5,889 bases of DNA, from IMG/VR virus record IMGVR_UViG_3300045988_003806. The stretch is one strand, 5' to 3'. The notes under the pieces were generated by a model. It saw only the letters and a list, made by a program, of their open reading frames with translations, was not told the origin of the DNA and did no database searches. Both the position numbers and the translations under genes were made by a program. The stretch is from a virus. Of this stretch, positions 3,024 through 5,889 are shown in pieces; the stretch's first letter is position 1, and each line of letters begins with the position of its first letter.

Positions 3024-3884
3024 ATGGCGTTAGCAGCAATCGGCAGCGCACTACTCGGAATCGGCAAACAACTACTCCCGACGATCGCCGGAGGACTCAT
3101 AAACAAAGTGTTGGGCGGCAGTCTGATGGAGAGCAACGGAGGAAGCCAACAGCACAACGAAAGTTCAAGTCAGGGAGGCGGCTACAGCAGCAGCGCCAGC
3201 GGCGTAAACCGAGAACAGAACCTGAAAGACTGGAACAGTATGCTAGGGGCAATTCAAAGCAATATGCAAAGCCAGCAGAAGTTTAACCGTAAAAGCATGT
3301 TCGAGCAAATGGGCTATAACACCATGGCAGCAATCACTCAGGGTATATATAACCAGATAAGCAACAACGCGGCGATGTCCTACAACAGCGCAGAAGCAGC
3401 CAAAAACAGAGCTTGGCAAGAGCAAATGAGCAATACAGCTTATCAGAGAGCCGTGGAAGATATGCGAAAAGCAGGAATAAACCCTATCTTAGCATATCAA
3501 CAGGGCGGAGCAAGCACTCCGGGAGGTGCGCAGGGTACAATCAGCGGGGCAAGCATGGGACTCGCAAGCAGCAGTGCGGCGACCGCAAGTGCTCTTGGAG
3601 TAAGCCAGAACCACAACAACACATGGAGTAAAAGCGAAAGCAACTGGTACAACGCAGCACAAGCAGTTGGAGACGCTACAAGCTGGTCGCACACAAGCGC
3701 AGACAAAGCGTTTAAGGCATTCCAAGACGTCTTCAACGACCTCAGCAACCTAAACAGTAACGTCAACAGTAACGTCGGCGGAGGTGCAGGGAGGAACCCG
3801 AAGAAAGATGAGCTCGAATACAAACCGGGAAAAGACTTCATCGGAAGCAAAAACATCGAATTTTGGAAAGGAAAACTTAAATAA
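3024..3884 (+). CDS. VP2: Minor capsid / DNA pilot protein VP2 (286 aa).
   Basis: Hydrophobic Gly/Ala-rich N-terminus, low-complexity S/G/Q/N regions and the conserved segment WQEQMSNTAYQRAVEDMRKAGINPILAY (nt 3414-3497) typical of gokushovirus VP2. Lies directly after VP1. Confidence 0.9.
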   Translation: MALAAIGSALLGIGKQLLPTIAGGLINKVLGGSLMESNGGSQQHNESSSQGGGYSSSASGVNREQNLKDWNSMLGAIQSNMQSQQKFNRKSMFEQMGYNTMAAITQGIYNQISNNAAMSYNSAEAAKNRAWQEQMSNTAYQRAVEDMRKAGINPILAYQQGGASTPGGAQGTISGASMGLASSSAATASALGVSQNHNNTWSKSESNWYNAAQAVGDATSWSHTSADKAFKAFQDVFNDLSNLNSNVNSNVGGGAGRNPKKDELEYKPGKDFIGSKNIEFWKGKLK

Positions 3885-4904
3885 ATGGGGTGTAACAAGC
3901 CGTTAATCCGGTTTTATGTACCTCATGACAGGGAGGCGAGCGGGCGTGTATACTCGCTCGCTTCTTTTAATGCAACACATAAAACCAACATGAGATACGA
4001 AGATCTGATGTATCGTAAAGATGTGATGATGATTCCATGCGGACAATGTACAGGATGCAAACTACGCAAGCGAAAAGACTGGGCAACGCGGATGGAGCTA
4101 GAAGCATACAGCCACGACAAAGAAAGCATCTGGTTTATCACATTAACCTATGATGACGACCATGTGCCAACACAGAACACGGAAACAGGGGAAATCTTCA
4201 AGGGAGGCGTGAACGTCTGGAAAGGCGCCTCAGAGCGTCCTAGAACGGTGCAAACTTTAAGCGTGGAGGATGTCCAGTTATTCATGAAAAGGCTTAGAAA
4301 GGCCGTCAGAGAGCCTATCAGATACTTCTTAGCCGGAGAGTATGGAGACAACACCTCAAGACCACACTATCACATGATACTGTACGGGTGGTATCCAGAC
4401 GACTTAAAGCCAATTCACAAGCTATCAAGGTTTGGACACTACACGAGCGATAAGCTAGTCAAGGTCTGGGGACAAGGGACAGTTGACATAGCTCAAGCAA
4501 CGCCAGAAACGTATAACTACGTAGCTGGATATGTGACCAAGAAGCTGTACGGAAACGACAGAGACAGGTACAAGAAAATGGGACTCAGACCGCCATTCTG
4601 TGTGATGAGCCGAAAGCCAGGCCTCGGAGACAAATGGTTTCAAGAGAATCAAGAAAGGCTATGGCAACTTGGATATATCCAGCTGACAAACGGCAAGAGA
4701 GCAGCCATTCCAGAATATTATTGGCGAAAGCTGGAAGCTGAAAATCCTGAAAAGGCGTGGAGAATCAAGCAGTATCGACAAGAAAAAGCCATTGCATCCC
4801 TAATCGAAAGAAACATGGAAACTGACAAACGGTATGCCGAACAACTGGCCGATAAAGAAACAATCATGAAGAAGAAGATGTCCAAAGCAAAGGGCGTTTT
4901 TTAG
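3885..4904 (+). CDS. VP4: Rolling-circle replication initiation protein VP4 (HUH endonuclease superfamily), 339 aa.
   Basis: Motif I FITLTY (4134-4151), HUH motif PHYHMILYG (H-Y-H at 4365-4373), Tyr motif YNYVAGYVTKK (4512-4544) and N-terminal CGQCTGC (4038-4058). The ATG abuts the VP2 stop (TAAATG). Confidence 0.95.
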   Translation: MGCNKPLIRFYVPHDREASGRVYSLASFNATHKTNMRYEDLMYRKDVMMIPCGQCTGCKLRKRKDWATRMELEAYSHDKESIWFITLTYDDDHVPTQNTETGEIFKGGVNVWKGASERPRTVQTLSVEDVQLFMKRLRKAVREPIRYFLAGEYGDNTSRPHYHMILYGWYPDDLKPIHKLSRFGHYTSDKLVKVWGQGTVDIAQATPETYNYVAGYVTKKLYGNDRDRYKKMGLRPPFCVMSRKPGLGDKWFQENQERLWQLGYIQLTNGKRAAIPEYYWRKLEAENPEKAWRIKQYRQEKAIASLIERNMETDKRYAEQLADKETIMKKKMSKAKGVF

Positions 4905-4914
4905 CTCTGGTGTC

Positions 4915-4968
4915 ACTCAGCCAAGTAACTATCAAGTATATATACTTGGCTGAGTATTTTTTATTTTA
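4915..4968 (+). terminator. Long hairpin (13-bp stem, 15-nt loop) followed by a T6 tract. Intrinsic terminator after VP4, with an alternative internal palindrome.
   Basis: ACTCAGCCAAGTA (4915-4927) pairs perfectly with TACTTGGCTGAGT (4943-4955), followed by ATTTTTTATTTT. CAAGTATATATACTTG (4933-4948) is itself a perfect 16-nt palindrome that competes for the same 3' arm. Confidence 0.6.
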
Positions 4969-4977
4969 TTGAATCGT

Positions 4978-5010
4978 TCGCGCACGCGCACGAAATCGCG
5001 CACGCGCACG
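4978..5010. repeat. Two perfect direct copies of TCGCGCACGCGCACG separated by AAA. Alternating pyrimidine-purine GC block.
   Basis: Copies at 4978-4992 and 4996-5010. Strict Py-Pu alternation over 4979-4992 (14 nt) and 4997-5014 (18 nt). Bracketed by the inverted hexamers AATCGT (4972-4977) / ACGATT (5012-5017) and by AT-rich ATTTTATT tracts. Confidence 0.85.
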
Positions 5011-5042
5011 CACGATTTTTATTATTTTATTATTTACTTGTT

Positions 5043-5058
5043 GTAGTAGTAGTAGTAG
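5043..5058. repeat. (GTA)5 trinucleotide microsatellite.
   Basis: gtagtagtagtagtag read directly in noncoding sequence. Confidence 0.9.
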
Positions 5059-5062
5059 GGAG

Positions 5063-5239
5063 TGTTGAAATGTTGAAAACTATAAATTTTTATCCGTGGA
5101 ACGATATTTTTTTACTGATTTTGATATTGAAACTTTTGTTGAAAACTTGTTGAATTGTTGAAAGTATAGCAATATGCACAAAACCATTTGTGCAACTTTT
5201 TGTGGAAAACCTGTTGAAAGTGTTGAAAGTGTTGAAAAC
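5063..5239 (+). repeat. Iteron array: 8 same-orientation copies of TGTTGAA (7 of them TGTTGAAA) in three clusters, plus 2 one-mismatch copies.
   Basis: Copies start at 5063, 5071 | 5137, 5148 (TGTTGAAT), 5156 | 5212, 5221, 5230. Degenerate copies are TATTGAAA at 5125 and TGTGGAAA at 5201. Spacing within clusters is 8-12 nt. An AT-rich spacer lies at 5081-5124. Confidence 0.9.
5175..5194 (+). other. Hairpin TGCACAAA-acca-TTTGTGCA between iteron clusters II and III.
   Basis: Perfect 8-bp inverted repeat with a 4-nt loop. Confidence 0.5.
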
Positions 5240-5250
5240 TCAATCAGAGG

Positions 5251-5317
5251 CAGCTCGGCAGCTGGCCGGAAAGTTGCGTCATGCTCTTCGTGCGGCGCAC
5301 CGCGCCTAACGCATGAC
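5251..5317 (+). other. GC-rich cluster of three predicted stem-loops in otherwise AT-rich noncoding DNA.
   Basis: H1 is CAGCT-cggc-AGCTG (5251-5264). The outer stem is GTCATGC (5278-5284) / GCATGAC (5311-5317). It encloses GGCGC-acc-GCGCC (5294-5306). Confidence 0.45.
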
Positions 5318-5356
5318 CTTCAATGCAAAATTCTTCTAACTTTTTTTCAAAAAATC

Positions 5357-5385
5357 TCGACTTTCTTCTAAAAATATAGTACAAT
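5357..5385 (+). promoter_or_regulatory. Candidate sigma70-type promoter for the small two-gene cassette.
   Basis: TCGACT (5357-5362), 17 nt, then TACAAT (5380-5385), inside an AT-rich tract about 20 nt upstream of the 5405/5414 start. Motif match only. Confidence 0.3.
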
Positions 5386-5404: not shown

Positions 5405-5599
5405 GTGAACGCCATGTTGCACAGTTATGAAATCCGAAGATTTGACAACAACGGAGATACACACATCGTCGATTGGTTCAAGGAAGAGCCAAAAGTCGCA
5501 AAGCAAAAGCTGAAAAAGTACGCAAAGAAAAATCCCGGGATATACTCGCTGTACCAAGTTCAGCACGTAGCAAGCTGCTTCACGGTAAAGGAGAACTAA
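5405..5599 (+). CDS. Hypothetical 64-aa protein (61 aa if it starts at the ATG at 5414). Lys-rich centre, no family recognised.
   Basis: GTG at 5405 or ATG at 5414, downstream of AAAGGA (5396-5401). The stop (5597-5599) is 1 nt before the next ATG, and the next gene's RBS lies inside its 3' end, suggesting a coupled pair. Confidence 0.5.
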   Translation: MNAMLHSYEIRRFDNNGDTHIVDWFKEEPKVAKQKLKKYAKKNPGIYSLYQVQHVASCFTVKEN

Positions 5600-5600
5600 T

Positions 5601-5783
5601 ATGACTAGTATACGGTTTGCAAGTAACAAACAGTTACTCTACATGAAGTACAGATACGAATATTGTAAAGGGGATTGTGAGAGCTGCCCATGCAAAGTCG
5701 AAGGACACCGTTGCAGATACGTATACGAAGAAGTCAAAAAGGAACTCGACGAACGAAATAAAAGACCGGGAAAAGGGGATTGA
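5601..5783 (+). CDS. Hypothetical 60-aa Cys-rich protein (C-x3-C-x2-C-x-C-x4-H-x-C) with a basic/acidic helical tail. Putative metal-binding small protein.
   Basis: Good RBS AAGGAG (5588-5593) 7 nt before the ATG at 5601. Cys/His cluster at aa 22-38 (nt 5664-5714). The stop codon lies in the loop of the downstream terminator. Confidence 0.55.
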   Translation: MTSIRFASNKQLLYMKYRYEYCKGDCESCPCKVEGHRCRYVYEEVKKELDERNKRPGKGD

Positions 5784-5800
5784 CGATCCCCTTTTTTTTT
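5771..5800 (+). terminator. Strong rho-independent terminator spanning the circular junction.
   Basis: AAAAGGGGAT (5771-5780), loop TGACG, ATCCCCTTTT (5786-5795), with a T9 run (5792-5800, equivalent to window nt 2-10). Confidence 0.75.
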
Positions 5801-5889
5801 GATACAACATAAATAGTCAAACAGCACAAAGATGTGCTCAACAAACTCTGTTTTTACAAAAATAACTTTATGAAAGAGGTGAACTGCCC
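5791..5889. repeat. Terminal redundancy, copy 2 (identical to 1-99).
   Basis: Same 99-nt string as the window start. See the first feature. Confidence 0.95.

Follow-up and report, generated by a model that had tools for sequence, protein, structure and literature searches.

A predicted DnaA-dependent unwinding module, resembling clostridial chromosome origins, in the noncoding DNA of gokushovirus genomes

Introduction

The basal unwinding system (BUS) of bacterial chromosome origins comprises at least three DnaA-trios located no more than 16 bp from a DnaA box, with tandem boxes being its commonest form (PMC8287927). The trio itself reads 3′-NAN-5′, most often 3′-GAT-5′ (PMC8287927, PMC6669920), and the orientation of the proximal box with respect to the trios is essential; its reversal inactivates incC of Bacillus subtilis (PMC6669920). 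In this work, we analyzed a 5889-nt stretch of viral DNA (IMG/VR record IMGVR_UViG_3300045988_003806; hereafter, the window), in which an earlier note, made from the letters alone, had described clustered TGTTGAA repeats downstream of the gene for the replication protein (Rep), and we compared this array and its surroundings with the BUS and with other described systems. According to Pfam and PHROGs, the window is a complete genome of a gokushovirus (Microviridae) that encodes VP1–VP5. Gokushovirinae are the dominant microviruses of the human gut and, to our knowledge, their replication origins are unmapped and the hosts of most gut lineages unknown.

Several other systems share individual elements with such an array. 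In P1 oriR, pSC101, F, RK2 and R6K, direct repeats are combined with an AT-rich tract and with dependence on host DnaA; there, the repeats (iterons) bind the replicon's own Rep, whereas DnaA boxes are accessory. The origin of the microviruses phiX174 and G4 is a 30-nt sequence (CAACTTGATATTAATAACACTATAGACCAC) within gene A (4299–4328 in phiX174), with neither repeats nor involvement of DnaA. In the origin enhancer (domain B) of f1/M13, a host protein, IHF, acts on the AT-rich region flanking a rolling-circle nick site. Clusters of DnaA boxes located outside a functional origin, as in datA and DARS of Escherichia coli and the inc regions of B. subtilis, alter DnaA availability, and titration of DnaA by such clusters is established biology for datA and the inc regions. 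Finally, phages of the phi29 family carry arrays of sites for the host regulator Spo0A, of similar sequence (TGTCGAA), which tie replication to host physiology (PMC2731898); the phi29 sites are scattered near promoters and origins and not joined to trios.

Results and Discussion

Architecture of the repeat array and its flanking trios

Taken together, the comparisons described below make it probable that the TGTTGAAA repeats of the window, the (TAG)5 tract next to them, a G-rich spacer and an AT-rich tract (5016–5238 altogether) constitute a phage copy of the oriC basal unwinding system, predicted to be opened by host DnaA. The repeats are situated in a noncoding stretch of about 500 nt, which extends from the stop codon of the VP4 (Rep) gene (4904) to a sigma-70-like promoter (5357–5385); the only open reading frame (ORF) spanning the region (5174–5371, 65 aa), which runs across the third repeat cluster, had no family match in Pfam or PHROGs, in agreement with the previous description of the region as noncoding and downstream of the Rep gene.

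Exact counting yielded eight copies of TGTTGAA in the window, all on the plus strand, at 5063, 5071, 5137, 5148, 5156, 5212, 5221 and 5230, compared with a mean of 1.24 and a maximum of 5 in 200 shuffles. The eight same-strand copies that the earlier note had placed in 5063–5239 were thus reproduced, as were their grouping into clusters of two, three and three with a spacing of 8–12 nt and the two one-mismatch copies, at 5125 (TATTGAAA) and 5201 (TGTGGAAA). A further degenerate box, TGTGCAACT at 5189–5197, had been overlooked. These three degenerate copies fill slots that are perfect boxes in relatives, which had likewise escaped notice for the two one-mismatch slots, and the total amounts to 10–11 boxes, all pointing in the same direction. 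Cluster I (5063–5079, plus strand) is the trio-proximal pair and consists of the tandem boxes TGTTGAAAT and TGTTGAAAA. Cluster II (5125–5164, plus strand) contains the boxes at 5125 (degenerate, TATTGAAAC), 5137, 5148 and 5156, and cluster III (5201–5238, plus strand) is formed by TGTGGAAAA, a canonical-type DnaA box, at 5201, TGTTGAAAG at both 5212 and 5221, and TGTTGAAAA at 5230.

The previous description had also missed the elements located on the 5′ side of the array. Five DnaA-trio repeats, (TAG)5 (3′-GAT-5′; 5044–5058, plus strand), lie directly 5′ of cluster I, with the G-rich 4-nt spacer GGAG (5059–5062) leading to the first box. Beyond the trios, an AT-rich tract (5016–5043; 89% A+T) represents the predicted DNA unwinding element, and no 30-nt segment of the genome forms a less stable duplex than the one that begins at 5016 (rank 1 of 5889; −28.5 kcal/mol vs. 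a mean of −40.2 and a standard deviation of 3.5). Hence, the window combines five trios, a 4-bp spacer, tandem boxes at 5063 and 5071, a box-to-trio orientation equal to that of bacterial dnaA–dnaN spacers, and an unstable AT-rich element beyond the trios, i.e., the components of a basal unwinding system. The AT-rich tract ends in the phage-specific ACTTGTTG (5036–5043), usually AACTTGTTG, which is near-invariant in phage modules and not found as such in host origins; it directly precedes the trios, continues their 3-nt period (TTG TTG TAG...) and forms an imperfect palindrome, AACWWGTT.

With regard to the individual boxes, the copy at 5201 (TGTGGAAAA) does fit the relaxed DnaA-box consensus (TGTGGATAA; the strict form being TTATCCACA), as had been stated before. 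The perfect repeat TGTTGAAAA shows two mismatches to the strict consensus and one to the relaxed consensus; the mismatch count of the earlier note was therefore correct, but its implication of a near-miss probably was not, given that TGTTGAAAA corresponds to a predicted origin box variant of Oscillospirales-type bacteria, as described in the following section. As for the remaining elements of that note, the spacer at 5081–5124 is indeed AT-rich (77% A+T vs. 53% in the genome) and the hairpin at 5175–5194, located between clusters II and III, is perfect (8-bp stem, 4-nt loop; its 3′ arm overlaps the weak box TGTGCAACT). However, the AT-rich tract that matters is the one at 5016–5043, and the hairpin is not kept across lineages, where a different one or none is present. 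Among relatives, the 5081–5124 spacer occurs in two unrelated versions, one with a conserved TTATCCTTGGAACGATAT and the other with a small AACGCTAAAGCGT hairpin; since both are equally long, the box slots are preserved.

The same layout in chromosomal dnaA–dnaN spacers of Clostridia

A first genome scan with TGTTGAAWTGTTGAAW proved too unspecific, returning mostly chance matches or unrelated TTGTTGAAT tandem arrays of Bacteroidota, yet it yielded a lead locus in a metagenome-assembled genome (MAG) of Oscillospiraceae (L190). This locus contains TAGTAGTAGTAGTAGGGGG-TGTTGAAAC-TGTTGAAAAC followed by many copies of TGTTGAAA, TGTGGAAAA and TTTTCCACA, and its flanks encode dnaA (TIGR00362, 5e-145) and dnaN (TIGR00663, 5e-75), then rnpA and yidC; it is a classical chromosomal origin region. 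For a systematic comparison, 185,579 species genomes were scanned for TAGTAGTAG-N0-8-TGTTGAAA, which gave at least 120 loci, and 8-kb loci were inspected. Of the 120 loci listed, 42 carried dnaA or dnaN, and in all 42 the match was located in the dnaA–dnaN spacer, antisense to both genes, either 40–500 nt upstream of dnaN or, where dnaN was off the contig, 120–270 nt downstream of dnaA. This contrasted with a control scan using the reversed box (TTTCAACA, equal composition), in which none of the 120 loci listed was near dnaA or dnaN (Fisher p = 6e-15). The loci from the scan belonged mainly to Oscillospiraceae, Acutalibacteraceae, Ruminococcus, Faecalibacterium, Christensenella and unclassified Clostridia.

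The correspondence extends to the remaining elements of the module. At least 23 host dnaA–dnaN spacers contain (TAG)3–5 at the equivalent place, the spacer between trios and box reads GGGG, GGGC or GTGG, and an AT-rich tract occupies the position equivalent to that in the phage. In two Oscillospiraceae origins (L319 and L368), the layout of cluster I is identical, reading TAGTAGTAGGGGCTGTTGAAATGTTGAAAAC, and a Ruminococcus spacer (L260) holds TGTGGAAAACCTGTTGAAAGCTGTTGAAAG, i.e., TGTGGAAAACCTGTTGAAAG(C)TGTTGAAA, which is nearly the cluster III string of the phage. In the 23 complete spacers, additional TGTTGAAA copies (anchor excluded) reached 4.4 per kb compared with 0.27 in the flanks, a 16-fold enrichment, and TGTGGAAA reached 2.5 per kb vs. 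0.19; the top recurrent 8-mers of the host spacers were GTGGAAAA, TGTTGAAA, GTTGAAAA and TGTGGAAA. In many Oscillospirales-type Clostridia (L190, L260, L319 and L368, among others), TGTTGAAAA (TTTTCAACA) appears to be a main origin box beside TGTGGAAAA, while the textbook TTATCCACA is rare in those spacers. Because it is enriched and recurrent in dnaA–dnaN spacers beside TGTGGAAAA, we take TGTTGAAAA to be a natural box variant of Clostridia origins, and it can be predicted to serve as a DnaA box across a large group of these bacteria.

Since the phage boxes match those of Clostridia origins, beside the same (TAG)n and AT-rich elements, the phage probably uses the host initiator. The likely hosts, to judge from these matches, are Oscillospirales-type Clostridia. 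Recruitment of host DnaA, which the earlier note had put forward as an alternative, thus finds stronger support than was claimed for it, in that the repeats correspond to a host-origin box variant predicted to act together with trios and an unwinding element.

As a locus of bacterial chromosomes, oriC adjoins dnaA and dnaN, whereas the module of the window belongs to a phage genome in which domain scans detected neither a dnaA nor a dnaN domain; it would resemble an oriC module in its working, but it is no chromosomal oriC. Integrated copies were sought by means of the phage-specific ACTTGTTGTAGNNGTAGTAG. Of 74 genome matches, a single one was real, and it corresponded to a whole 5.7-kb microvirus contig binned in a MAG; it provides neither evidence of a prophage nor a usable host link. 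In a MAG of Mesoaciditoga sp. (L279, at about 2500–2900), a complete module of trios and 13 boxes of the TGTTGAAA type was also noted. Neither dnaA nor dnaN was matched within that 8-kb locus, which may represent an origin unlinked to dnaA or a case of diverged DnaA.

Conservation among gokushoviruses and inversion in one clade

The earlier note had proposed a search for the array in related microviruses. The array was present in all 29 contigs with a VP4 at least 86% identical to that of the window, and also in lineages in which VP4 was only about 55% or about 36% identical (overall VP4 range, 36–96%). Pattern scans of IMG/VR retrieved more than 100 microvirus-size contigs with the array, and 43 GenBank phage records matched the noncoding region. 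In nine GenBank gokushoviruses (H13–H21), megablast matched about 5015–5245 with 77–94% identity, and nothing else in the genome.

In 46 modules, the box slots are fixed to the nucleotide with respect to an upstream anchor, at 25 and 33 (cluster I), at 87, 99, 110 and 118 (cluster II) and at (152, 160), 163, 174, 183 and 192 (cluster III). The orientation of the boxes was constant in all of them, and exact TGT[TG]GAA filled 6–10 slots per genome. The one-mismatch copies of the window correspond to slots 87 (5125) and 163 (5201); in three relatives (L019, L034 and L113), slot 152 is also a perfect box. Trios, spacer, box orientation and weak duplex are kept in every lineage.

In a divergent clade, which comprised 19 genomes in the strand tally (e.g., L031, L058 and L402) as well as GenBank KX513876, the whole box-trio module is inverted and located between VP2 and VP4. 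The module is also inverted in KT264784, but there the nearest GGTGTC is on the other strand. In both arrangements, the AT-rich end of the module faces a hairpin proximal to VP4 (4909–4955 in the window). Because this strand-specific hairpin adjoins a module free in its orientation, we infer that the module acts on the duplex replicative form (RF) and is linked to the hairpin.

No such module was found in phiMH2K or SpV4, and Chlamydia phage 2 (Chp2, L499) contains only two TGTGCAAAA copies. These are in tandem, 12 nt apart, at 2820–2840 of its genome, in an intergenic position after VP3 and with no trios near, and they may provide a classical gokushovirus with a minimal pair of DnaA boxes. 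In addition, (TAG)3–6 followed within a few nucleotides by TGTGGAAAA/TGTGGATAA, together with box clusters, was observed in larger viral contigs, mostly of 15–50 kb where listed (L648, L663, L671, L676, L690, L696, L703, L718 and L720), which lack dnaA and dnaN. On account of its genes for portal and Mu F-like proteins, one of them, L676, is assigned to a tailed phage; origin-mimic modules may therefore exist beyond microviruses, including in some tailed phages.

The VP4-proximal hairpin and the GC-rich palindrome

Directly after the VP4 stop codon, a hairpin with a GGTGTCA leader (4909–4955, plus strand) constitutes a candidate strand-specific VP4 origin hairpin, a VP4 terminator, or both. 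Of 81 genomes with the module, 78 have this hairpin on the coding strand, regardless of the direction of the module. The stem, of 8–14 bp, covaries, with compensatory changes in five of eight stem pairs, while the GGTGTCA leader and the loop CAAG are invariant (loop form CTATCAAG(T/A)A). Its resemblance to a VP4 terminator derives from the T-run that follows. On the basis of these features, the hairpin is a better candidate for the VP4 site than the repeats, and it is located 108 nt upstream of the first box.

A motif similar to the ACTTGAT of the phiX174 origin was recognized by eye, in that ACTTGATA is the complement of the loop at about 4931–4938. Chp2 contains a similar hairpin at 2905–2946, with loop TCTACTTGAT and ACTTGAT on the coding strand. 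In the window and its relatives, ACTTGAT is on the non-coding strand (loop ATCAAGTA), and of the shared TCACCTAGC leader only the reverse complement is present. Either the orientation of the hairpin with respect to the genes is reversed, or nicking and packaging in the gut phages involve the opposite strand. The ACTTG beside the trios was also considered as a VP4 nick site (phiX CAACTTG^A), but this candidate was set aside because, in the inverted clade, the motif changes strand together with the module.

Between the hairpin and the AT-rich tract, a GC-rich, alternating CGCGCACGCG imperfect palindrome (4972–5017) is formed by two copies of the alternating purine-pyrimidine unit CGCGCACGCGCACG, which is prone to adopt Z-DNA or cruciform structures. 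The CGCGCACGCGCACG unit is present in many lineages, and other GC hairpins take its place in some.

Alternative explanations for the array

The earlier note had favored an iteron origin bound by Rep/VP4, of the type found in rolling-circle plasmids and in circular Rep-encoding single-stranded DNA viruses. The repeats are direct, phased, beside an AT-rich tract and near both the Rep gene and a hairpin, and either VP4 or the product of a small downstream ORF (5405–5599 or 5601–5783) could be the ligand. Nevertheless, this reading fails in its central test. Iterons co-vary with the Rep of their replicon, whereas the sequence and spacing of the repeats remain constant while VP4 diverges: they are unchanged where VP4 is 36–56% identical and, more generally, do not co-vary with it over the whole range given above. 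Furthermore, the same motif fills, and in fact dominates, the dnaA–dnaN spacers of bacterial chromosomes. The cassette downstream varies among relatives and its small ORFs have no DNA-binding family match, and the covarying hairpin with its invariant motifs offers a better VP4 site. Iterons of such origins immediately adjoin the hairpin that carries the nick site, and their strand is fixed, whereas here the candidate hairpin is 108 nt away and the array flips in one clade. We thus regard binding of the repeats by a phage protein as highly improbable. Even less credence can be given to the idea that the repeats are a by-product of a small protein, or of a structured RNA, encoded here. While the 65-aa ORF (5174–5371) spans cluster III and a 9-nt period would suit codons, this ORF has no family match and is interrupted in relatives (by eye, its frame ends after about 24 codons in L001), and the module occurs in both orientations relative to the genes. 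Moreover, scans of the whole window with Rfam (E ≤ 1) and for tRNAs gave zero matches in 5016–5238.

Other explanations involve a host regulator. The Spo0A box, TGTCGAA (TGNCGAA), differs from TGTTGAA at a single position, resembles DnaA boxes and overlaps them in B. subtilis oriC (PMC5295017). Given that the likely hosts are Clostridia and that phages of the phi29 family use Spo0A sites, the array might allow a host that forms spores to arrest the phage through Spo0A~P when it sporulates, in the manner of phi29. What makes this very unlikely is the composition of the discriminating fourth position. Among 376 TGTNGAA sites in the 46 phage modules, it was T in 333, G in 41, A in 2 and C in none, and among 105 sites in host spacers it was T in 72, G in 28, A in 3 and C in 2; the alternative base is therefore the G of the DnaA consensus and, in the phage modules, never the C of Spo0A boxes, including those described for phi29. 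In addition, conservation reaches box position 8, past the 7-mer, and an association with trios is a DnaA-specific feature, although Spo0A may be a secondary ligand. An unlikely, but less remote, option is that the array binds host DnaA without being an origin, either titrating it and thereby stopping host initiation or allowing DnaA to regulate the promoter at 5357–5385. Each genome carries at least ten boxes, the RF is multicopy, and the array is flanked by the VP4 terminator and the following promoter, all of which would suit such a role. A sponge, however, needs neither (TAG)n at a fixed distance of 4 nt from an oriented box nor the weakest duplex of the genome, all of which are conserved, and the array of the inverted clade does not precede the same promoter.

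Several observations weigh against a phage copy of the basal unwinding system as well. The perfect box TGTTGAAAA is two positions off the textbook TTATCCACA and is a predicted box only. It is not obvious why a microvirus equipped with a Rep protein would require DnaA, and phiMH2K and SpV4 lack such a module. The GC-rich palindrome (4972–5017), lying between the AT-rich tract and the hairpin, would hinder the spreading of a bubble. In B. subtilis, the dnaA–dnaN region alone is not known to give autonomous replication. Finally, when the phage noncoding region was compared with the host origin loci by blastn, only the trio-box core of about 40 nt was aligned, with a single longer alignment (135 nt, 70%, L296); beyond that core, the likeness is at the level of motifs and therefore does not demonstrate a recent capture, convergence being possible.

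A proposed mechanism and its implications

If the module does work as a basal unwinding system, host DnaA-ATP would bind the 10–11 same-direction boxes on the double-stranded RF and, beginning at the trio-proximal pair, would oligomerize along the TAG strand, and the AT-rich tract at 5016–5043 would melt beside the VP4-proximal hairpin. Such opening would start replication of the phage duplex, either through the host helicase loaders (theta-type RF replication), or by providing the HUH endonuclease VP4 with a single-stranded substrate at the hairpin, or by both routes. The route via the hairpin is slightly favored because hairpin and unwinding element stay adjacent.

More tentatively, the RF could be kept as a DnaA-dependent mini-chromosome that fires with the host origin under the control of the DnaA-ATP level, and perhaps of Spo0A when the host sporulates, in a plasmid-like, non-integrated carrier state in Oscillospirales hosts, with VP4-driven rolling-circle replication from the hairpin being reserved for virions; we consider this possible, albeit rather doubtful. 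A weaker corollary is that the antisense strand may be packaged, because the phiX-like ACTTGAT of the hairpin lies on the non-coding strand; base-composition skews in the window gave no answer with regard to the packaged strand.

Should the module function as its anatomy suggests, a single-stranded DNA phage with its own Rep would also depend on host DnaA, which would couple its replication to the cell cycle of the host and provide a mechanism for long-term phage persistence. The module also provides a sequence-based host prediction, in which origins with TGTTGAAAA boxes by (TAG)n point to Oscillospiraceae, Ruminococcaceae and Acutalibacteraceae.

Comparison with described systems

Among the systems introduced above, the bacterial BUS of the B. 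subtilis incC type (DnaA boxes 6 and 7, trios and AT-rich element) is the closest. The module shares with it the tandem boxes, the G-rich spacer, at least three 3′-GAT-5′ trios, the AT-rich tract, the orientation and the further box clusters, and its core is nearly identical to that of dnaA–dnaN spacers in Oscillospiraceae, Ruminococcus and Acutalibacteraceae. It differs in being carried by a 5.8-kb single-stranded DNA phage with neither dnaA nor dnaN near, beside a Rep-type hairpin and with ACTTGTTG before the trios. Likewise, the phage boxes all face one way at rigid slots, whereas host spacers mix orientations and spacings.

In comparison with P1 oriR, pSC101, F, RK2 and R6K, whose DnaA dependence is predicted here also for the phage, the repeats would be the DnaA boxes themselves and are joined to trios; no RepA-type initiator was detected by Pfam in the window. 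The relationship with phiX174 and G4 resides in the shared family, in VP4 (PF23343), which is related to protein A, and in the ACTTGAT-like motif present in the hairpin loops of both the phage and Chp2. In contrast, the TGTTGAAA array is unlike their origin and has no counterpart in phiX174, phiMH2K or SpV4. The f1/M13 enhancer provides an analogy for DnaA assisting VP4, but its host factor is not DnaA and it comprises neither trios nor a box array. Similarly, the clusters of datA, DARS and inc lack the arrangement of trios and unwinding element that is conserved in the phage.

In line with the previous statement that the array was not known as a described microvirus feature, full-text searches found no paper in which gokushoviruses occur together with DnaA, and none that connects Microviridae with DnaA boxes or microviruses with oriC; those papers that mention both Microviridae and DnaA dealt, by title or abstract, with other subjects. 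Thus, a module of DnaA boxes, trios and unwinding element, well known in chromosomes, appears to be new as the most conserved noncoding segment of Rep-encoding single-stranded DNA phages.

Genome context and additional features

The sequences at 1–99 and 5791–5889 of the window are exactly identical (terminal repeat, assembly overlap); the shared 99-nt ends imply a circular genome of 5790 nt. Its genes comprise VP5 (643–879, Pfam), the VP3 scaffold (809–1336, Pfam), the VP1 capsid protein (1333–2982; Pfam PF02305, 4.5e-142), the VP2 pilot protein (3024–3884, PHROGs) and the VP4 Rep (3885–4904; Pfam PF23343).

Downstream of the module, a GC-rich hairpin (GTCATGC...GCATGAC; 5278–5317), whose membership of the module is uncertain, is kept in L001–L003 and L007–L009, with other GC hairpins in L004, L005 and L012. 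The sigma-70-like promoter for the downstream small ORFs (TCGACT-17-TACAAT; 5357–5385, plus strand) marks the 3′ limit of the noncoding region and matches better in relatives, e.g., TTGACA-17-TATAAT in L007 and L009. A reading of the repeats as an array of sigma-70 −35 elements (TTGAAA) was rejected, as the promoter scan put no promoter inside the array.

The cassette located 3′ of the module varies among the relatives that share it, with a peptidase M15 gene in KX513868 and unrelated sequence elsewhere. In the window, it contains the small ORFs 5405–5599 and 5601–5783, for which Pfam and PHROGs gave no usable function. The product of ORF 5601–5783 (60 aa) is rich in cysteine (CKGDCESCPCKVEGHRC) and had no family match; downstream of its gene, there is a good terminator-like hairpin (GGGGATTGACGATCCCC, then a T-run).

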